From Planctomycetota bacterium (lineage in GTDB: Bacteria > Planctomycetota > B15-G4): 64,000 bases of DNA. Positions 20,101-31,611 of the stretch are shown here, piece by piece. The notes under the pieces are model-generated. The model was not told the origin of the DNA. It searched no databases and worked only from the letters and a program-made list of their open reading frames with translations. The translations under genes and the position numbers were made by a program. The stretch lies in NCBI GenBank assembly GCA_029259725.1, contig JAJDER010000070.1, positions 25,387 through 89,386 of the forward strand. The letters run 5' to 3'. Position 1 is the first letter of the stretch; each line of letters starts with the position of its first letter.

Positions 20101-20859
20101 TCAGCCGCCGCGGCCACCGCGGCCACCGCGCTCGCCGGCGCCACCTTCACGGGCGGGCTCCTGCTCGCGTTCGGGGGCGGCGTCGCGCGCCGGCGCGGCG
20201 TCACGCCCCGGCGAGCGTGCCGACGCGCGCGCGTCGGCCAGCGCCTTCAGGGTCGGCCGCGGATCCGCGTCGAAGGCCTTGACGCAGTTGCCGCAGCAGA
20301 ACTGCACGAGCGTGTTGCCGTAGAGCACCTGCCGGGGGTTGTCGCCGAGCGCCTTGCCCTTCACCAGGCAGGTGGTGACCGGATAGTCGGCCGCCTGCGC
20401 GGTGATGTAGGCCTGGTCGAGGCGCGCCATCGCCGCGGTCGGGTCGGCCGTGAGCTTCTTGGCGCAGCTCTTGCAGCAGGTGCGGGCGAGACGGGTGCCG
20501 ACCACGACGTCGACGGGCGCATCACCGAGAGCCTCGCCCGGCTGGAACAAACAGGTCTCGAGCGGGTAGCTGGCGGCCTGGGCCTCGATCACGGCGCGGT
20601 CCACCTTGGCGATGGCGGCGGCGGGCTCGGCGTGCACCTTCTTGACGCAGCCGTTGCAGCACAGCTTGACGAGGCGGCCCTCGACGACGACATCGATCGC
20701 ATCGCCCATCGAGCCGAGCTCCTCGCCGCTGATCACGCAGGTGGTCAACGGGTACGAGGGGGACTGGGCGGCGATCACGTCGGCGTCGCCGGGCGTGGCC
20801 GCGGTGAGGAGGACGGTGAGAACGGGCAGGGCCGCAAGGGCCAGCAGGCGGGTGAGCAT
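20101..20859 (-). CDS. Secreted protein with three YHS/TRASH-like metal-binding repeats
   Basis: Signal peptide; 3x YPxxTC...CCxxC (CCNGC, CCKSC, CCGNC). Confidence 0.85.
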   Translation of the reverse strand: MLTRLLALAALPVLTVLLTAATPGDADVIAAQSPSYPLTTCVISGEELGSMGDAIDVVVEGRLVKLCCNGCVKKVHAEPAAAIAKVDRAVIEAQAASYPLETCLFQPGEALGDAPVDVVVGTRLARTCCKSCAKKLTADPTAAMARLDQAYITAQAADYPVTTCLVKGKALGDNPRQVLYGNTLVQFCCGNCVKAFDADPRPTLKALADARASARSPGRDAAPARDAAPEREQEPAREGGAGERGGRGGRGG

Positions 20860-21101
20860 GGTCACGAGTGCTCCTTGGATGGTGGGTTCGGCGCGGTCTT
20901 GTCGTTCACCGGCCGGGCGCGGCTGATTATTCCAGGTTGGGCGGCTCGGCGGGGGAACTTCACGGCGACTTGCCGTGCGCCGGCGGCGGCGATGCGGCCA
21001 TCATGTCCGGGGCGCACGCCCGCAGGGGCCTCTCGCCGGGCCCGTATCCACGCGGCCGAGGCCGATCCCGCCAGGAATCCCGATCTCCCGGAGAACGACC
21101 C

Positions 21102-21888: not shown

Positions 21889-23271
21889 ATGCGTTCGCCG
21901 TCCCACACCCTCGCCGCGGGCCTGTGCCTGGCCGCCATGCTGTCGGCGCTGATCGGACTGACGGTCCACACCCGCGCGGTCGCTGCTGGCTTCCCACCCT
22001 GGGTGACGCCACTCCCGCTCACGCAGCGCGACTTCCGCGTGTTCCCCAACTTCACGGACTCGAGCGCGAACGACAACGTCGTCCCGCATCCGCACTTTCC
22101 CGGCGCCACCGGGGCGGCTCTCGCGATCTGGAAGGCGCACACCGAATGGAGTGCCGTCCCGCGGGGTGGTGATGGTGCCGGGGACGGCTGGGCGGGCAAT
22201 CCGGTGCTCGGCGACGGAGGCGCGCTCTTCGAGACCCACTACCAGGGCCTGGCCGTGATGCCCGGCGGAACCAACGACAACGTCCACTCGGCCATCGACG
22301 GGGGGATCTGTGGCGGCGGCACCTTCGCCTTCACCGAGACACCGACGCACGACGGCTGGCGGATCCGCTATTGCGACGGAGGCCTGTTCCAGCTGGCGTG
22401 GCACGACGGGCCGGGCGCACCGACGAACGGCTGGGACCTGCAGGGCGTCTCCACGCACGAGGTCGGACATGCGCTCGGCCTGGGCCACAGCAACGCCGCC
22501 GGGAATCCGACCATGGCGCCGGCGTTCGCCGGGACGGGTGTCGAGTGGCGTTCGATCGAAGCCGACGACATCGAGGGCGTGCAAGCCATCTACGGGATCG
22601 CCACGAGCGTCAAGCCGGTGCTGCTCGGCGCGGACGGCTCGAGCGAACCGGGCGGCACGCTGGTCCTGACGGGCACCGGCTTCGCGGACACGGGCAACGA
22701 GGTGTGGTTCACCTCGGCCGGCACGGTCGGCGACGCGCTCGTCGTGTCGGGCGTCCCGGCGGATCTCGGGGGAACGCGGCTCAGCGTCGCCGTCCCGCTC
22801 GCGGCCGAGTCCGGAGAGGTCCTGGTGCGGAGCGGGACGACCGCGACGTTCGCCGGGTTGTCGAACCCGCTGCCCCTGGACGTCGGTGGGTTTCCGGGGA
22901 CCTTCGCAGGCTCGGGTCAGGGCGTGGCGGGCGCCAAGGGCTTCCCGGTCCTGTCCGGAAGCGGAGACCTGACGCCGGGCGGACCCGGGTTCACGCTCCA
23001 TCTGCAACTCGTGAAGAACCTGGCGAGTGGACTGCTCTTCGTGAGCACCGAGGTCGGAGCGTTGCCCTTCAAGGGCGGTACGTTCGTGCCCGTCCCGGTC
23101 CTCGCCGCAGTGCCCGTCAGCGTGGGTGGCGGCGGCAAGCTCGACCTGCCGGGAGCCCTTCCGGTCGGCCTGCCCGCCGGCACCACGATCGTGCTCCAGG
23201 CCTGGTTCACCGACAGCGCGGCGATCCTGGGCGTGAGCGCGACCAACGGCCTGCAACTGACGACGCCTTGA
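21889..23271 (+). CDS. Secreted matrixin (M10-like metzincin) metallopeptidase with IPT/TIG-like domain and uncharacterised C-terminal domain
   Basis: HEVGHALGLGHS zinc motif, Met-turn PTMAP, DDIEGVQAIYG; PGGTLVLTGTGF...NEVWF; GAGGAG RBS. Confidence 0.88.
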   Translation: MRSPSHTLAAGLCLAAMLSALIGLTVHTRAVAAGFPPWVTPLPLTQRDFRVFPNFTDSSANDNVVPHPHFPGATGAALAIWKAHTEWSAVPRGGDGAGDGWAGNPVLGDGGALFETHYQGLAVMPGGTNDNVHSAIDGGICGGGTFAFTETPTHDGWRIRYCDGGLFQLAWHDGPGAPTNGWDLQGVSTHEVGHALGLGHSNAAGNPTMAPAFAGTGVEWRSIEADDIEGVQAIYGIATSVKPVLLGADGSSEPGGTLVLTGTGFADTGNEVWFTSAGTVGDALVVSGVPADLGGTRLSVAVPLAAESGEVLVRSGTTATFAGLSNPLPLDVGGFPGTFAGSGQGVAGAKGFPVLSGSGDLTPGGPGFTLHLQLVKNLASGLLFVSTEVGALPFKGGTFVPVPVLAAVPVSVGGGGKLDLPGALPVGLPAGTTIVLQAWFTDSAAILGVSATNGLQLTTP

Positions 23272-23369
23272 CTCTGCAGGCCTTCGCGTGACTCGCGACA
23301 TCTCGCGGGAGGTGGCCACGACACTTCGTGATCGACGAGATCCCGCGCCGGCAGGATCCGGCGGCGTAG

Positions 23370-23402
23370 GGCCCAAGTCGTTCGGGGGCAACGACTTGGG
23401 CC
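23370..23402. promoter_or_regulatory. Perfect 13-bp inverted repeat (protein-binding site or terminator hairpin)
   Basis: GGCCCAAGTCGTT-N7-AACGACTTGGGCC; no U-tract on either strand. Confidence 0.6.
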
Positions 23403-23414
23403 GTCGGCCTGGAT

Positions 23415-23430
23415 TGGCACAGGACGTGCG
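23415..23430 (+). promoter_or_regulatory. Putative sigma-54 (-24/-12) promoter
   Basis: TGGCACAGGACGTGCG matches TGGCAC-N6-TGC with exact GG-N10-GC spacing. Confidence 0.55.
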
Positions 23431-23546
23431 GTGCGGAAGGCATGTCGCTCCTGCTGCTCCCGCCGGAGACCGCCGCACGTCGCCCCCCACCCGAAGCGAC
23501 GCGCGCCACTGTCCCGCAGGCCCGCCCGCGGCGGCGGCCATCCGCC

Positions 23547-25052
23547 CTACGGGATCTGCAGCTCGATCGGGTTGGTGACCGCGAGCCCGCCCGAGGCCGC
23601 CGGATCCCGCAGGATGGCCTGGAGATTGACGGTCAACCCCACGAGCCCGTGAGGCAGCGTTGCCGTCAGGCTGAGCGAGCCGTCCGCCGGGCCTCCGCCG
23701 GTGAGCACGAAGGGGATGCCGGCCGTCAGCAGCGGGAGGTTCTGGAGCGCGCTCCCCGGCTTCACGTCGGCGACGCCGGTCCCGCTGCCGAAGGTCAACA
23801 GGCCGAGTTCGCCACCGGCCCCGTTGACGGCGGTCAGCGTGAGGGCTCCGTCAGGGAAGCCCTGGCCGCGCAACCTCGGGACCAGGCCCGCCCCACCGAC
23901 ACTGCCTTCACCGTAGACGGTGAAACCACCCTCTCCGTCCGGAACGGCGACGAACGGATGCACGCCGCCGCCGAAGAACCCGTCGCCGGTGATCGCACCG
24001 TCGTTCGTGATCGAGTAGGCGTTGGCGAGGATCCAGCCCGTCGCCGGGTCGATCAGGTCATTCAGGTCCGTCATCACGCCGTCCTCGTAGACGATGGCGT
24101 GGACGCTGGAGCCGTTGGACGAGCTGGTCCCGACGATGGTCCCGTGCTCGTTGATGTCGCGCGCCCAGCTCATGCCCGCGCCTCCCAGCAGCGTGCCGAG
24201 GTTCTCGGGCACACCGTCGACCCAGACCGTGGCGGTCTCGAACTGGCTGCCGTCCTCGATGAAGTCCGCGATGCCGACGATCACGCCGGACTCGTTGATC
24301 GCGCGCGCCTCACTCACGCCGCCGAGGATCACGGCCGGGTCGTGCAGGTCTTCGATCTGGCCGTCGACCCACCTCACGGCGTGCCGGGCCGCGCCCGCGA
24401 AGCCGGCTCCCACCACGACGCCCTGCTGGTTCCGATCGAAGGGGAAGGCGGTCCCCGACATCGGGCCGGACAGCGAGCCGAGGTCCTGCGAGAGGCCGGT
24501 GGCGAGATCAAGCACGAAGGGCCGCGCCGTACCCGTCGCGGCCTGGCGACCGAGGCCGAGGACCACGCCGTCGTTGCTGATGCGGTGCGCCTCGAGCAGA
24601 TCCAGGTGCACGGCACCGCCCGTGACGAGACCATCGAGCGCCTGCACCTCGCCCGCGATCCAGACCACCGCGTCCGGCGTGAAGGTGGGAAAGGGGCCGC
24701 TGAGGTCTACGAGGTAGGACTCGCCCACGGCGTCCCCGAAATCGTTGACGTCGCGCCCGTTGCCGGCCTCGTGGCCCGGCAGGGTGGGCAGCAGCGTGGT
24801 CGTGCCGTCGAAGCTCCACAGCCCGGCTTGCGCGAAGCCCGGGCCCGGCGGGAACGCGTTGCCGACGGCCAGGCCGAAGTCGTTGGTCTGCAGCGCGACG
24901 CCGCCGGACGCGCCCCCATCGGCATCGAGCTGACGCGGCGAGAAGTCGAGGTCGGCGAGTTGGGCGCCCACGACGGGCGCCAGCGCGGTCAGGACGAGGA
25001 CGAGGCTGACAGCCCTGAGGAAACCCGAAGTGGCATTCGAGAGGTGTGACAT
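23547..25052 (-). CDS. Secreted HAF-repeat (beta-propeller-like) protein with uncharacterised C-terminal domain
   Basis: Signal peptide; repeats such as NLGTLLGGAGMSWARDINEHGTIVG...HAIVYEDGVMTDLNDLI. Confidence 0.85.
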   Translation of the reverse strand: MSHLSNATSGFLRAVSLVLVLTALAPVVGAQLADLDFSPRQLDADGGASGGVALQTNDFGLAVGNAFPPGPGFAQAGLWSFDGTTTLLPTLPGHEAGNGRDVNDFGDAVGESYLVDLSGPFPTFTPDAVVWIAGEVQALDGLVTGGAVHLDLLEAHRISNDGVVLGLGRQAATGTARPFVLDLATGLSQDLGSLSGPMSGTAFPFDRNQQGVVVGAGFAGAARHAVRWVDGQIEDLHDPAVILGGVSEARAINESGVIVGIADFIEDGSQFETATVWVDGVPENLGTLLGGAGMSWARDINEHGTIVGTSSSNGSSVHAIVYEDGVMTDLNDLIDPATGWILANAYSITNDGAITGDGFFGGGVHPFVAVPDGEGGFTVYGEGSVGGAGLVPRLRGQGFPDGALTLTAVNGAGGELGLLTFGSGTGVADVKPGSALQNLPLLTAGIPFVLTGGGPADGSLSLTATLPHGLVGLTVNLQAILRDPAASGGLAVTNPIELQIP

Positions 25053-25950: not shown

Positions 25951-28900
25951 TCAGGTGCTCGCCCTTGCCAGACGCCGCTCGCGCACCCAGCAGAAGAGCA
26001 CCGGCACCACGAACATGGTCATCAGCTCGATGGCCATGCCGCCGAAGCTGGGGATCGCCATCGGCACCATCACGTCGGCGCCGCGGCCGGTGGAGCTGAG
26101 CACGGGGAGCAGCGCCAGCAGCGTGGTGGCCGTGGTCATCAGGCACGGGCGGCAGCGACGGGTGCCCGCCGAGACCACCGCCTCGCGCACGCCGGCCACC
26201 GAATCGGGCTCACGCCGATCGAAGGACTGCTTGAGGTAGGTCGCGATGACCACCCCGTCGTCGGTGGCGATACCGAACAGCGCCAGGAACCCGACCCACA
26301 CGGCGACGCTCAGGTTCACGGTGTCCATGTGGAACAGCTCGCGCAGGTTCTCGCCGAGCAGCGAGACGTCACCGAACCAGGCCTGCCCGTAGGCCCACAG
26401 CAGCAGGAAGCCGCCCGACCAGGCCACGAAGACGCCGGTGAAGATCATCAACGTGGTCGAGACCGCGCGGAACTGCAGGTACAGGATCAGGAAGATCAGG
26501 AACAGCGCGACGGGCAGCACGACGCGCAGGGTCTTCGTGGCGCGGAGCTGGTTCTCGTAGCTGCCGGCGAAGACGAAGCTGACTCCGGCGGGCAGCTCCC
26601 ACTCGCCGGACGCCCGCTTGGCCTCGAGGTAGCGCTGGCACTGCTCGACGACGTCCACCTCCGCCCAGCCCTGCTGCTTGTCGAAGACGACGTAGCTGGT
26701 CAGGAAGGTGTCTTCGGTCTTGATCACCGCGGGCCCACGGACGTAGCGGATCTCGGCCAGTTCGCTGAGCGGGATCTGCGCTTCGCCCGGCGTGGGCACC
26801 AGCACGCGCTCCATGTCCTCGAGCGTCGTGCGCAACTCGCGCAGGTAGCGCACGCGTACCGGGTAGCGCTCGCGCCCCTCCACGGTGGTGGTGATCTTGC
26901 GGCCGCCCAGGGCGATCTCGATCACGTCCTGCACGTCGGCGACGGACACGCCGTGGCGCGCGGCAGCGCGGCGGTCGACGTCGAACTCCAGGTACGGCTT
27001 GCCGACCACCCGGTCGGCCAGCACCGCGGCGGGCTCGACGCCGGGGACCTCCTTCAGCAGGCGCTCGAGCTCGAGGCCGACGCGTTCGATCGTCTCCAGG
27101 TCCGGCCCGCGCACCTTGATGCCCATGGGCGCGCGCATGCCGCTCTGGAGCATGACCAGGCGCGCGGCGATGGGCTGCAGGCGCGGCGCCGAGGTCGTGC
27201 CCGGGAGCCGCGCCGCGCGCACGATCTCGTCCCAGATGTCGTCCGGGCTGGTGATGTGGTCGCGCCAGTTGCGATACGGCCGGCCGTCCTCGTCGGGCAC
27301 GAGCCGGTCCGCGGCGTCGCGCAGGTGGACGTCGTGATCGTCGTCCCAGGCGAAGCGCTCCCGGTGGCCGTTCTCGTCGACGATGTACTCGGGCGCGTAG
27401 TTGACGACCGTCTCGATCATCGACACCGGCGCGGGATCCAGCGCGGTCTCGGCCCGGCCGAGCTTGCCGACCGCCATCTCGACCTCGGGCACGCTCTCGA
27501 TCGCCTGGTCGAGGCGCGCGAGCACGTCGAGCGCCTCCCCCAGGGACGCGTGCGGCATGGTCGTGGGCATGAACAGGTAGCTGCCCTCGTCCAGCGGCGG
27601 CATGAACTCCTTGCCCAGCCCGGGGAAGGCGTGCCGGCCGTCGGCCCACAGCCCGGTCCGATATACGCTCGTCGCGTCGCCGCCGAGGCCCGCCCAGGTC
27701 GCGGGAACGAACGCGAACACGCGGTCCCAACCGAGCCAGACCAGGAGTCCGAGCAGCACGGTCACGATCGGCGCCAGCAGGAACGTGCCCTTGTGGTCGA
27801 GGCACCAGCGCAACAGGCGCGGATAGACGCGCTGGAAGAACCAGAACAGCAGCAGCAGCCCGCCCACGGTCAGCGCGACGAAGAGCAGGTTCGCGAAGTC
27901 GCCACGGCGAGGGCCGAGCGGCTCCCAGGCGCCCGCGAGCACGACCGCGACGACGGCCATCGCCCCCCACAGCAGCAGCCGGTTGCCCAGCTTGCCCCAG
28001 ACGCGAGGCGTCGCCGACGGCCGCCGCGGGAACAGCCAGAGCGCGAAGGCCGGGATGATCAACAGGGCCACGACGATCGACCCGACCAGCGCGAAACTCT
28101 TGGTGAAGGCCAGCGGCCGGAACAGCTTGCCCTCGGCCCCGATCATGGTGAACACGGGCAGGAAGCTGACGATGGTCGTGGCCACCGCCGTGAGCACCGC
28201 CGAGGCCACCTCCATCGTCGCGGCGTGGATCGTCTCCAGCGCCGAGGACCCCGGCGCCGCCTCGTCGAGTCGGCGCAGGATGTTCTCGCTGAGCACGATC
28301 CCGACGTCGACCATGGTACCGATGGCGATCGCGATGCCCGACAGGGCGACGATGTTCGCGTCCACCTCGAACAGCTTCATGGCGATGAAGGTGAACAGCA
28401 CGGCCGTCGGCAGCAGCACCGACACGAGCACCGACGCGCGCAGATGCCGCAGCATGAACACGACGACCAGGATGGTGACCAGGATCTCGAGGCGCAGCGC
28501 CGTGTCGAGCGTTCCGAGCGTCTCCTGGATCAGCCCCGTGCGGTCGTAGAAGGGCACGATCGTGAGCTGGGAGACGGTGCCGTCCTCGAGCACGCGCCGC
28601 GGCAAGCCCGGGGAGATCTCCGCGATCTTCGCCTTGACGGACTCGATCACCGCGAGCGGGTTCGCCCCGTAGCGCGCGACGACCGAGCCGCCCACGGCCT
28701 CGGCCCCGCCCTTGTCCAGCGCGCCGCGCCGCAGCGCCGGGCCGAGCGCCACGTGCGCCACGTCCTTCACGCGCAGGGGCACGCCATCGACCGAGGTGAT
28801 CACCGACTCCTCGATGTCCTCGAGCGACTCGAACCAGCCCGTGCCGCGCACGAAGTACTCGACGCGGTTGATCTCCACCGTGCGCGCGCCGACCTCCAGG

Positions 28901-29595
28901 TTGCCCTCGCGCACCGCGCTGAAGACCTGGTCCAGGCTCACGCGATGGGCGCGCATGGCGTCGGGGTCGACGTCGATCTGGTACTCGCGCACGAAGCCGC
29001 CGACCGACGCGACCTCGGCCACGCCGTCGGCCGCCATGAGCGCGTAGCGCACGTACCAGTCCTGCGCCGAGCGCAACTCGTCCAGGTCCCAGCCGCCGGT
29101 GGGGTCGCCGTCCTGGTCACGCCCCTCGAGCGTGTACCAGAACACCTGCCCCAACGGCGTCGCGTCCGGCCCGAGCGACGGACTCACGCCCTCGGGCAGG
29201 GTGTCGGGCGGCAGGCTGGCGAGCTTCTCCAGCACGCGCGAACGCGACCAGTAGAAGTCCACGTCCTCCTCGAAGATCATGTAGATCGAGGAGAAGCCGA
29301 AGTAGCTGAACGAGCGCACCGTGCGCACGCCGGGCACGCCCAGCAACGACACCGTGAGCGGATAGGTGATCTGGTCCTCGACGTCCTGCGGACTGCGCCC
29401 CATCCACTCGGTGAAGACGATCTGCTGGTTCTCGCCGATGTCCGGGATGGCGTCGACCGGGATCGGGTCGCGTGGCAGGCCGGTCGCGTCCCAGTCGAAG
29501 GGCGCGACGGCCACGCCCCAGCCCAGGAGCGCGACGCACAACAGCACGACGATCAGCCGCTGTTCGAGGAAGAAGCGGACGACGCTGGACAGCAC
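25951..29595 (-). CDS. cusA: Heavy-metal efflux RND permease, CusA-like (Cu(I)/Ag(I) type)
   Basis: DAIPDIGENQQIVFTEWMGRSPQDVEDQITYPL, GIAIAIGTMVD, EFMPPLDEGSYLFMP, DPAPVSMIET, QPIAARLVMLQSG, RPCLMT. Confidence 0.93.
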   Translation of the reverse strand: MLSSVVRFFLEQRLIVVLLCVALLGWGVAVAPFDWDATGLPRDPIPVDAIPDIGENQQIVFTEWMGRSPQDVEDQITYPLTVSLLGVPGVRTVRSFSYFGFSSIYMIFEEDVDFYWSRSRVLEKLASLPPDTLPEGVSPSLGPDATPLGQVFWYTLEGRDQDGDPTGGWDLDELRSAQDWYVRYALMAADGVAEVASVGGFVREYQIDVDPDAMRAHRVSLDQVFSAVREGNLEVGARTVEINRVEYFVRGTGWFESLEDIEESVITSVDGVPLRVKDVAHVALGPALRRGALDKGGAEAVGGSVVARYGANPLAVIESVKAKIAEISPGLPRRVLEDGTVSQLTIVPFYDRTGLIQETLGTLDTALRLEILVTILVVVFMLRHLRASVLVSVLLPTAVLFTFIAMKLFEVDANIVALSGIAIAIGTMVDVGIVLSENILRRLDEAAPGSSALETIHAATMEVASAVLTAVATTIVSFLPVFTMIGAEGKLFRPLAFTKSFALVGSIVVALLIIPAFALWLFPRRPSATPRVWGKLGNRLLLWGAMAVVAVVLAGAWEPLGPRRGDFANLLFVALTVGGLLLLFWFFQRVYPRLLRWCLDHKGTFLLAPIVTVLLGLLVWLGWDRVFAFVPATWAGLGGDATSVYRTGLWADGRHAFPGLGKEFMPPLDEGSYLFMPTTMPHASLGEALDVLARLDQAIESVPEVEMAVGKLGRAETALDPAPVSMIETVVNYAPEYIVDENGHRERFAWDDDHDVHLRDAADRLVPDEDGRPYRNWRDHITSPDDIWDEIVRAARLPGTTSAPRLQPIAARLVMLQSGMRAPMGIKVRGPDLETIERVGLELERLLKEVPGVEPAAVLADRVVGKPYLEFDVDRRAAARHGVSVADVQDVIEIALGGRKITTTVEGRERYPVRVRYLRELRTTLEDMERVLVPTPGEAQIPLSELAEIRYVRGPAVIKTEDTFLTSYVVFDKQQGWAEVDVVEQCQRYLEAKRASGEWELPAGVSFVFAGSYENQLRATKTLRVVLPVALFLIFLILYLQFRAVSTTLMIFTGVFVAWSGGFLLLWAYGQAWFGDVSLLGENLRELFHMDTVNLSVAVWVGFLALFGIATDDGVVIATYLKQSFDRREPDSVAGVREAVVSAGTRRCRPCLMTTATTLLALLPVLSSTGRGADVMVPMAIPSFGGMAIELMTMFVVPVLFCWVRERRLARAST

Positions 29596-29598
29596 CGG

Positions 29599-31611
29599 TC
29601 AGTGCTCCTCGGACCCGGTCCCGGCGACCTCCGGAGGCGCCACGCGCAACGCTCGCGTCGCGTCGCCACACCGGAGCATCGACAGGCCCAGGTACGGATT
29701 GGCCGTGGGCCCGACGACCTGGAGCCAGTCCGCACCCTGGTCACCGAACGCCATGGGACAGTGGTACACGGCCAGCTCGGTGGCAGCCTGCCCGTGGCCG
29801 AACACACCGGCGGCCACGGTCACCGCCCGGCCCAGCTGCTCGAACGCCGCGCGCGCGGGCAGGAGCGCTTCGGCCGACGCCAGCGCGGTCGCCGTCGATC
29901 GGGCGATCGCGGACTGCTCGCCCCAGATCGCGCGCACGGGTTCCGACAGGCCTTGCCGGGGCACGTCCGCCACACGCGCGCGCAGGACGCGCGCCGCCGC
30001 GCGAGCCGCCTCCAGGTCATCCCCCGCGAGGGCGCGCTGGATCTCCAGGTAGCTCGCGACGACCTCGGCGAGAGCCGCGCCGAAGGCCTCCGGCGCCACG
30101 AGCATCTCCGGCTCCGCCGCCGCGTCGGTGGCGTCGGTGGCGTCGGAGACAGGACTCATCATGCTCGCCTGACCTCGCAGCTGGAGCTCGGCGTCGATCT
30201 TGAACGCCCCCTGGGTGACCACGAGTTCGCCTTCCCTGAGACCCTCGACGACGACGTAGTCGTCACCGGCCCGCGGCCCCAGGACGACCTCGCGCAGCTC
30301 GAAGGTCGGGCGCTCGGCGTCGGGGCGCTTCACGAAGACGACGGCACGCTTGCCGGTCACGAGCGGCGCGCTACCCGGCACGACCAGCGGATCCGGTCCC
30401 GGCGGCGCGGCCCGGTACCCCAGCGAAGCCGCGGGCACGAGCTGCATGCCGCACAGTTCACACTCGATCTGCGCATCCGCCACGATCTCCGTGTGCATCG
30501 GGCACATCCAGGCGTCCGCCAGGTCGGGTTCGATCACGCGGCCGCCGTCGCCGAGTTCCGCATCCACGATCGCTCGCACGAACATGCCCGGCCGCAGCCG
30601 ACCGTCGGGATTGTCGACGTTCACGCGCACGCGCACGGTGCGCGTGGTCTCATCGAGGATCGGCGCGATGAACGCGACGGTCCCGTGCTCGACCACGCCT
30701 GGGTAGGCGTCCACCTCGAAGGTCACGTGCTGACCGAAGCGGATCCAGGGCAGGTCAGGCTCGTACGCGTCGAGCATCAACCACACGTGCGAGAGGTCCG
30801 CGATGGTGTAGATGTGGTCGCCGGTGTTGACGTAGGTCCCTTCGGCCACCGGCTTCGCGATGACCGTCCCCGCCGTCTGCGCGAAGATGGTGACGTGCGT
30901 ACTCGGCTCCAGCTGCTGCTCGATACCGGCGATCTGCTCGTCCTTGAGGCCCCACAGCCGCATGCGTTCGCGGGCCACCTCCAGCGACGCCTGCTGACGA
31001 GTGGGCACTTCCTCGCCACGCTCCAGGTAGGCGTTCGCGGCTGCCACGGCCTGCAGCAGCTCGCGTTGGGTCGTCAGCAGGTTGGGGCTGTAGATCTCGC
31101 CGAGATGGTCGCCGGCCCGGACCCGTGCGCCCACGTAGTCGACGAAGAGCTTGTCGAGACGACCGGACACCCAGGCCGTGATCGTGTCGACGCGGGTCTC
31201 GTCGTGGGAGACGCGCCCGAACAGCCGCAACGGGCGCGCGACCGCGCGGCGCTGCACGACCGAGGTCGCGACGTCGGCCAGGGCGGCGGCCTGCGGCGAG
31301 AGGGACAGCACGCCGGGGCCGAGGTCGTCGCCGTCGTCCTGGTTGGCGGGGATCAGGTCCATGAAGCAGATCGGGCACTGACCGGGATCGGGCAGGCGGA
31401 TCTGTGGATGCATCGAGCAGGTCCAGGCCGTCACGCCCGCGTCGGGGGCACCCATCCTGTGCGCCGGCCCACCGTCGCAGGACCGGCCGATCACGATGCC
31501 GAGCAACAGCGCGACGAGGATCGCGAGCACACCGGGTCGCCGTCGCGGCGCGGGGGCCTGCGGTGCGGCGGTTGCCGGCGGCTGCGCTTGCGAGGCGCTC
31601 GAGGACGTCAT
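29599..31611 (-). CDS. cusB: RND periplasmic adaptor, CusB-like, with two heavy-metal-binding domains and DUF3347-like C-terminus
   Basis: WTCSMHPQI...CPICFMDL; LRPGMFV; WMCPMH...CELCGMQL; YHCPMAF...DWLQ...NPYLG.SMLRCG. Confidence 0.9.
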   Translation of the reverse strand: MTSSSASQAQPPATAAPQAPAPRRRPGVLAILVALLLGIVIGRSCDGGPAHRMGAPDAGVTAWTCSMHPQIRLPDPGQCPICFMDLIPANQDDGDDLGPGVLSLSPQAAALADVATSVVQRRAVARPLRLFGRVSHDETRVDTITAWVSGRLDKLFVDYVGARVRAGDHLGEIYSPNLLTTQRELLQAVAAANAYLERGEEVPTRQQASLEVARERMRLWGLKDEQIAGIEQQLEPSTHVTIFAQTAGTVIAKPVAEGTYVNTGDHIYTIADLSHVWLMLDAYEPDLPWIRFGQHVTFEVDAYPGVVEHGTVAFIAPILDETTRTVRVRVNVDNPDGRLRPGMFVRAIVDAELGDGGRVIEPDLADAWMCPMHTEIVADAQIECELCGMQLVPAASLGYRAAPPGPDPLVVPGSAPLVTGKRAVVFVKRPDAERPTFELREVVLGPRAGDDYVVVEGLREGELVVTQGAFKIDAELQLRGQASMMSPVSDATDATDAAAEPEMLVAPEAFGAALAEVVASYLEIQRALAGDDLEAARAAARVLRARVADVPRQGLSEPVRAIWGEQSAIARSTATALASAEALLPARAAFEQLGRAVTVAAGVFGHGQAATELAVYHCPMAFGDQGADWLQVVGPTANPYLGLSMLRCGDATRALRVAPPEVAGTGSEEH

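Follow-up and report, generated by a model that had tools for sequence, protein, structure and literature searches.

The type A C-terminal domain (CTD) of the type IX secretion system (T9SS) of Bacteroidota (TIGR04183, Por_Secre_tail) is a lineage-restricted, immunoglobulin (Ig)-like beta-sandwich that is found once per protein, at the extreme C-terminus, on unrelated signal-peptide proteins that number from dozens to hundreds; PorU carries such a CTD as well. The type I dockerin (PF00404) is a small, mostly C-terminal, single module on many secreted proteins of one organism, a calcium-binding helical repeat that binds the common surface scaffold of the cellulosome and tolerates other positions. 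PEP-CTERM (PF07589), of the PEP-CTERM/exosortase system, is likewise a C-terminal tag on many secreted proteins and consists of a motif of about 24 residues, a membrane helix and a basic tail. Here we report on a domain of about 118 residues that forms the C-terminal end of two otherwise different proteins, a matrixin-type metalloprotease and a HAF-repeat protein, encoded by convergent genes in a stretch of 64,000 nucleotides (hereafter the window) of contig JAJDER010000070.1 of a Planctomycetota bacterium (assembly GCA_029259725.1). Judging by profile searches, the two tails belong to a large family that is without a name in Pfam, NCBIfam or the sequences of the Protein Data Bank (PDB), and on balance we regard the domain as probably a common localisation tag, for surface anchoring and/or sorting, on exported proteins of certain lineages of Planctomycetota.

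The domain resembles the T9SS CTD in its predicted Ig-like sandwich, which is of a generic kind, in its occurrence once per protein and mostly at the extreme end of many unrelated exported proteins and in its restriction to certain lineages, and the CTD of PorU is among its fold matches. It differs in that the two share no sequence match, in that it is longer, with about 118 residues and 10-11 strands, and in that it is partly N-terminal or internal; it also comes from another phylum and from a genome, 84.4% complete, in which T9SS parts were not found. Like the dockerin it is small, mostly C-terminal and single, and a dockerin sits at its position in one homologue (P0191) of the HAF-repeat passenger, but its models are all-beta, PF00404 is matched by none of 70 aligned members and 28 further members from distant families, and no cohesin-like partner was identified. 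PEP-CTERM also takes the same position in homologues of that passenger. In contrast to this motif, the domain is folded over 118 residues and has no hydrophobic helix, which agrees with the initial annotation of the window, made from the sequence alone, where the want of a transmembrane helix had set it apart from PEP-CTERM; exosortase (PF09721) gave 0 matches in the same incomplete genome. Finally, Ig-like, fibronectin type III (FnIII) and macroglobulin (MG) domains can be superposed on it (best Z 8.4), but these are usually tandem spacers or receptors found anywhere in a protein, whereas the domain described here is single, terminal, Pro-ended and present in some Planctomycetota only.

Size, position and range of the domain family

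When the two window proteins are compared by BLASTP, their tails alone align (matrixin residues 388-460 with residues 415-501 of the HAF protein; 33/88 identical, E 2e-5), and MAFFT widens the match to about 125 residues, with the motifs listed in the initial annotation, which had proposed a common C-terminal domain on both proteins. A profile built from the 151 other members, with both window proteins left out, matches the two tails over almost its whole length: model positions 4-119 align with the matrixin tail (E 1e-28) and positions 3-118 with the HAF tail (E 3.2e-12), and reversed open reading frames (ORFs) gave 0 matches at E<=1e-3 with the same profiles. These comparisons confirm, at the level of sequence, that the similarity of the two tails is beyond chance and is that of one homologous domain. 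The proposal is hence borne out for a domain of about 118 aa, at the same place but with limits slightly narrower than those first given (see the table).

The genome assembly comprises 4.79 Mb in 195 contigs, with a completeness of 84.4% and a contamination of 0.15%; for the searches it was translated in six frames, which gave 40144 ORFs of 60 aa or more. A hidden Markov model (HMM) of the two tails alone matched 83 of these at E<=1e-5, with 81 of the 83 ending no more than 6 aa before the stop. Iteration gave 141, 153 and 159 ORFs, terminal in 129, 139 and 140 cases, respectively, and in every round only a single domain was found per ORF (153 domains in 153 ORFs). Of the 153, 139 have the domain no further than 6 residues from the stop, and the ORFs bearing it are spread over 75 of the 195 contigs and include 123 of the 2237 long coding-like ORFs of the genome, or about 1 in 18. 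Some of the genes form tandem clusters, the example being contig C58, where seven stand in a row on one strand (C58:5374-24416), mostly paralogues with PKD and FG-GAP_2 domains together with one sulfatase; this cluster is a tandem expansion of domain-bearing, putative surface proteins.

Among 70 aligned members the median pairwise identity is 36% (range 13-80%), and the consensus reads W.DLG..L.G..G.P.L.G.G ... PFKGG.LVP ... L.LQ.WI.D.A.P.GF.ASNGL..T, in which one Gln is invariant and the Asp and several Gly are nearly so. The end of the domain is sharply placed: the stop comes 1-4 residues past the last strand, and 94 of 139 terminal members have Pro as their final residue, vs 258 of 2114 other coding-like ORFs. 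The same holds for the 150 best public representatives, 127 of which end in Pro, 65 of these with TTP. On the upstream side there is a mild preference for Pro at position -1 (34/114).

No established family accounts for the domain. A Pfam scan of the 70 members gave 0 credible matches (two stray ones at E 0.016 and 0.076), an NCBIfam scan of the same members gave four stray matches only (E>=0.0076), and a Pfam scan of 28 members from distant families gave one stray match at E 0.077, in line with the initial annotation, in which the domain was not recognised as a named family. The T9SS CTD families (TIGR04183 and PF18962) were thus unmatched, in Pfam and NCBIfam by the 70 and in Pfam by the 28 distant members. 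Two profiles run against PDB sequences found 0 chains at E<=10. The nearest ESM Atlas clusters are labelled 'hypothetical protein', with no common Pfam family and with Planctomycetota as the commonest phylum. Full-text literature searches, judged mainly from their listings, brought up no description of such a domain; passages from PMC11131199 and PMC7783341 deal with the signal peptides of carbohydrate-active enzymes (CAZymes) and with PEP-CTERM, not with this domain.

Beyond this genome, a profile compared with 1.84 billion representative proteins gave 13787 matches at E<=1e-3, 6245 at E<=1e-10 and 935 at E<=1e-30, and the match reaches the last few residues in nearly all of the 150 public proteins listed. 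When one genome of each species was scanned with a pattern, 148 of 151 candidates were confirmed, and 79 of the 80 loci kept from these 148 come from records titled as metagenome-assembled genomes (MAGs) of Planctomycetota, Phycisphaerales, Phycisphaeraceae or Planctomycetales. The remaining locus is in a record titled as a Pseudohongiellaceae MAG and could reflect either mis-binning of its contig or a transfer. The domain was found at E<=1e-5 in 59 of the 301 Planctomycetota genomes sampled, in an all-or-none fashion by family: it is present in families f1 (7/7), f2 (6/6), f3 (2/2), f7 (7/7), f14 (5/5) and f21 (2/2) and missing from f6 (0/15), f15 (0/15), f24 (0/10) and f27 (0/10). Of the 42 genomes in the class to which this one belongs, 39 have a match at E<=1e-20, as do all 15 of its family, the latter with 16 to at least 107 matches each; five genomes from five other, distant families have 13 to 61 matches each. 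Among 30 loci taken from these five genomes, 28 domains were found, all 28 at 0-6 residues from the stop and many ending in Pro. The initial annotation had named many matches, always C-terminal, as what would support it. The first part is amply borne out, in this genome as among public proteins. The second holds for about 90% of the copies here (139/153) and for 28/28 in the five distant families, 14 of the 153 not being terminal.

Predicted fold and passenger proteins

With the family alignment, AlphaFold2 (AF2) predicts the matrixin tail as an all-beta domain of 11 strands, with a predicted local distance difference test score (pLDDT) of 96.5 and a predicted template modelling score (pTM) of 0.89. 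The model of the HAF tail (pLDDT 85.1) has its strands in the same order, so that the two tails share one predicted fold of the generic Ig-like kind, as would be expected if the initial annotation was right about their kinship. Foldseek found no match in the PDB at E<=1e-3. With an exhaustive structure aligner the best matches are MG domains of TEP1r, at Z 8.4 and a root-mean-square deviation (rmsd) of 2.3 over 88 residues, and of CD109 (Z 8.4, rmsd 3.4 over 103 residues), and an adhesin repeat (6xi3; Z 8.0, rmsd 3.0 over 91 residues); Ig domains of LILR were matched too, and carbohydrate-binding modules (CBMs) and Ig-like domains of glycoside hydrolases are also among the matches. Just below these come hundreds of Ig-like and FnIII domains, with 498 and 669 chains at Z>=5. 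The PorU CTD (6za2_B residues 1054-1156) is matched at Z 6.7, rmsd 3.2 over 93 residues, and at Z 7.0, rmsd 3.4 over 95 residues (ranks 28 and 33), amid hundreds of Ig-like domains with equal scores. Best Z values of 8.0-8.4 are at a level that is common by the aligner's own calibration and correspond to a common arrangement. The predicted fold is that of a generic Ig/FnIII/macroglobulin-like two-sheet sandwich, which is a fold class and not a family.

The proteins that carry the domain are diverse. Pfam families were found at E<=1e-5 in 48 of 68 full-length members scanned, and these families are mutually unrelated. FG-GAP-type repeats occur in 24 members, six of which also have PKD, and glucose/sorbosone dehydrogenase (GSDH) occurs in four; sulfatase, Peptidase_C25 and DUF7948 occur in two each. 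Passengers met once are a subtilase (S8), a reprolysin, an Endonuclease I (Endonuclease_1), an Exo_endo_phos protein, a purple-acid-type phosphatase (Metallophos), a C-type lectin (Lectin_C), a spondin (Spond_N), CHRD, lamin-tail and proprotein-convertase P domains, and others. One of the proteins belongs to the NCBIfam family choice-of-anchor B (333 bits vs a cut-off of 100), whose name suggests that it comes with varying anchors. We also observed a 778-aa protein (C25:21632-23965, minus strand) that weakly matches the membrane glycosyltransferase family PMT_2 (E 1e-6); if that match is real, it is an integral membrane protein bearing the domain.

What stands at the end of one passenger in different lineages can be followed for the HAF-repeat protein. 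Its passenger part alone (residues 30-375) matches 164 proteins at E<=1e-5; the query aside, 119 of them were listed. The domain is carried by the closest 28 of these 119, in all cases no more than 6 residues from the end. Among the more distant homologues, Pfam confirms PEP-CTERM in all eight proteins flagged for it, at the very end in seven, a C-terminal FlgD Ig-like domain (FlgD_ig) in four of four, a C-terminal type I dockerin in one (P0191, residues 363-411 of 416) and an N-terminal LysM in two. One and the same passenger is hence paired with different sorting or anchoring modules according to lineage, and the domain therefore stands in their place.

Localisation, export and binding as possible roles

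We infer the localisation role of the domain from its position, its number, the diversity of its passengers, its conserved end and the swapping of modules; that there is a common partner, and that the domain is either retained or removed by cleavage, is likewise inference. If the domain does act as a localisation tag, the N-terminal signal peptide would take each protein through the Sec pathway, and the domain, folded and present once at the end of each protein with a free ...T-T-P carboxyl end, would then be recognised by one shared partner, which might be a glycan of the cell surface, a scaffold protein, or a component for export or attachment in the outer membrane. In this way proteases, nucleases, sulfatases and phosphatases, together with adhesin-like proteins with FG-GAP and PKD domains, could be brought to, or kept at, one place on the cell surface, in a mode of action akin to that of the dockerin, of the SLH module, or of the T9SS CTD in its anchoring role. 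A targeting domain of a secretion or surface-attachment system had been proposed in the initial annotation; position, number and passengers fit its targeting part, and for the system no partner was found.

Several observations weigh against a localisation tag. Fourteen of the 153 copies are not terminal, a few of these being merely 8-24 residues from the end. In two proteins the domain is N-terminal, immediately following the signal peptide, with a metallo-beta-lactamase-fold domain next in one (C165:23457-24848) and 365 residues without a Pfam match in the other (C135:39364-41103). Two sulfatases (C116:3604-5475 and C21:283-4092) have it as an insertion that separates the catalytic domain from the C-terminal SGSH_C subdomain; other non-terminal copies sit ahead of FG-GAP repeats or SdrD-B domains. 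Because such N-terminal and internal copies exist, a free C-terminus is not obligatory. Upstream of the domain there is neither a Pro/Thr/Ser-rich linker nor a cleavage-like motif, and the fold is silent on function, since its best Z values are at a commonly met level. The signal-peptide-like N-termini that the initial annotation had led one to expect on the unrelated passengers were seen in most of them, 94 of 123 domain-bearing ORFs passing a strict rule vs 677 of 2114 others, but that rule is a crude heuristic which about 30% of all other ORFs pass, and a laxer rule was uninformative, 1309 of the 2114 others passing it. Lastly, no partner or machine was found for the domain in the searches described next. 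In part, these points tell between the possible roles: the non-terminal copies argue for a position-tolerant anchoring module over a strictly terminal translocation signal and, by analogy, favour a binding module of the dockerin or SLH type over an export signal of the T9SS type.

In the search for a partner or machine, the T9SS parts SprA/Sov (TIGR04189), PorV (NF033710) and GldM (TIGR03517) gave 0 matches each in this genome, which is 84.4% complete, with control genomes for T9SS that were themselves mostly silent (one match only, below cut-off); Por_Secre_tail (TIGR04183) likewise gave 0 matches in the whole genome. Around 110 loci with the domain no conserved neighbour genes were found, the largest cluster free of the domain comprising 3 loci, in a survey for which ORF picking was greedy and imperfect (the domain was in 65 picked ORFs only). 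Exactly two Peptidase_C25 genes are present in the genome (C186:53516-56005 and C164:12332-14812), and both have the domain at their end. They score 34.2 and 26.8 bits against PorU (NF033707), for which the cut-off is 420, and C25 occurs in 171 of the 301 genomes irrespective of the domain, being missing in three genomes rich in it (G105, G127 and G247) and present in all ten of f27, which lack it. Peptidase_C25 was accordingly rejected as an obligatory PorU-like sortase, as its scores are far below the PorU cut-off and it does not co-vary with the domain.

Six ORFs of the genome have a secretin domain. Outside the window, on contig C90 (locus L141:4538-17222, minus strand), there are two unusually large secretins of 983 and 1094 aa, with long N-terminal regions containing tetratricopeptide repeats (TPR) and no standard Secretin_N domains, in a cluster that also includes two TPR proteins (962 and 380 aa) and two ORFs without a Pfam match (388 and 660 aa). 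Relatives of the N-terminal 780 aa of one of them were found in 251 of the 301 genomes, including families without the domain (f15 15/15, f24 10/10, f27 10/10); secretins of this type usually come two per genome and are often close together, which looks like a phylum-wide paired-secretin system. Given this distribution they were dismissed as a lineage-specific translocon, though they may have a part as a general exit. As regards the co-occurring translocon or processing enzyme for which the initial annotation would have had one look, neither Peptidase_C25 nor the TPR-secretins co-vary with the domain.

Another possibility, which we consider rather improbable, is that certain Planctomycetota lineages use the domain as cargo signal in a hitherto undescribed outer-membrane export-and-attachment pathway, which would read it at the free ...T-T-P end. 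If that were true, between 60 and more than 200 exoproteins per cell would owe their placement to this pathway, a functional counterpart of T9SS of independent origin in a phylum where protein secretion has hardly been explored. A dedicated pathway behind the domain would amount to a new secretion or anchoring system, and only a dedicated machine would make it categorically new. To our knowledge, next to nothing is understood of the route by which the very large sets of hydrolases and adhesin-like proteins of planctomycetes reach the cell surface. The domain could in any case serve as a label with which the surface proteome of these lineages might be predicted from sequence and, as a recombinant domain or in tagged reporters, as a handle toward the receptor or machine. 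The family also merits a Pfam or NCBIfam model, by which thousands of 'hypothetical' tails would be annotated.

It is somewhat less likely again that the domain is a true outer-membrane translocation signal of a secretion system not yet described, its free ...TTP end being read by a dedicated translocon, perhaps with cleavage afterwards. The extreme C-terminal position of nearly all copies (139/153 here, 28/28 in distant families), the Pro conserved as last residue at a fixed spacing, the single copy per protein and the more than 100 cargo-like proteins per genome are what such a signal would lead one to expect; the T9SS-like FlgD_ig tails at the same place in HAF-passenger homologues, and the presence of the domain on both Peptidase_C25 proteins, point the same way. 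Such a signal is difficult to reconcile with the functional-looking copies at the N-terminus and inside proteins, and the components that it would call for did not emerge: SprA, PorV, GldM and Por_Secre_tail gave 0 matches each (in a genome 84% complete and with mostly silent controls), C25 shows no co-variation and scores of 34 and 27 bits vs 420 for PorU, the TPR-secretins are phylum-wide (251/301), and no neighbour gene is conserved.

It could also be that the domain serves simply for ligand binding or adhesion, as a CBM or an Ig-like adhesin domain does, directed at an external substrate such as algal or particle polysaccharide and without any sorting role; its place at the C-terminus would then be no more than the customary one for added modules. 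We hold this reading to be unlikely, and slightly more so than a translocation signal. A generic Ig-like sandwich whose fold matches include CBMs and Ig-like domains of glycoside hydrolases would suit a binder, as would the tolerance of N-terminal and inserted positions, and the strand motif L-x-L-Q-x-W-I-x-D together with the PFKGG turn could form a binding face. However, the passengers are mostly not carbohydrate-active, being proteases, nucleases, phosphatases and FG-GAP, PKD and HAF repeat proteins, and no ORF has more than one copy of the domain (153 in 153), in contrast to the frequent repetition of Ig-like and CBM modules. A terminal Pro and a fixed end would be unexpected in a plain binder, and homologous passengers hold sorting or anchoring tags at this place, not CBMs. 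A mere structural cap or stabiliser, acting as a folding aid or protease shield with no common partner, is highly improbable, for although the predicted stability is high (pLDDT 96.5) and a terminal Pro could protect against carboxypeptidases, folding needs would hardly explain one lineage-restricted family in more than 100 copies on wholly different folds.

The two window genes and their surroundings

The features of the two genes are collected in the table. The passengers were identified by Pfam (Peptidase_M10, on the 460-aa protein) and NCBIfam (HAF_rpt, TIGR02913, on the 501-aa protein), and in the same scan of both window proteins neither tail was covered by any family of these databases. 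By inspection, both N-termini read as ordinary signal peptides, as the initial annotation had stated, that of the matrixin having a basic start, then a hydrophobic core and small residues at its end.

Features of the two genes that carry the domain, with positions in the window
Feature	Position	Strand	Evidence
Secreted matrixin-type metalloprotease gene, 460 aa, with C-terminal domain	21889..23271	+	ORF and translation; Peptidase_M10 E 2e-11
Matrixin signal-peptide-like N-terminus, ~aa 1-33	21889..21987	+	Translation read by inspection
Matrixin catalytic zinc-protease segment HExxHxxGxxH, aa 145-236	22321..22596	+	Pfam PF00413, best stretch
Matrixin C-terminal domain, predicted beta-sandwich, aa 343-460, end ...LQLTTP-COOH	22915..23268	+	Independent profile E 1e-28; AF2 pLDDT 96.5
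Secreted HAF-repeat protein gene, 501 aa, with same C-terminal domain	23547..25052	-	ORF and translation; TIGR02913 E 1.5e-16
HAF-repeat protein signal-peptide-like N-terminus, ~aa 1-31	24960..25052	-	Inspection of translation
Best-scoring HAF repeat of three matched stretches, aa 297-333	24054..24164	-	NCBIfam TIGR02913
HAF-protein C-terminal domain, predicted beta-sandwich, aa 380-501, end ...ELQIP-COOH	23550..23915	-	Independent profile E 3.2e-12; AF2 pLDDT 85.1

Between the protease and the C-terminal domain of the matrixin (aa ~240-340; window 22600-22910, plus strand) about 100 residues are without a family match. A weak, partial match to the profile of the domain family falls in this stretch, at aa 288-322 of the stop-to-stop ORF, and the stretch may be a further small beta domain. 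Adjoining the HAF gene there are two long ORFs of 1214 and 670 aa (window 25951-31611, minus strand), which from their translations look like a heavy-metal resistance-nodulation-division (RND) efflux pump and its membrane-fusion partner. On the other side, a 254-aa ORF (window 20101-20865, minus strand) has, as read from its translation, a signal-peptide-like start and three internal repeats, each of which holds paired Cys motifs of the form C..SGE...CC.GC.KK.

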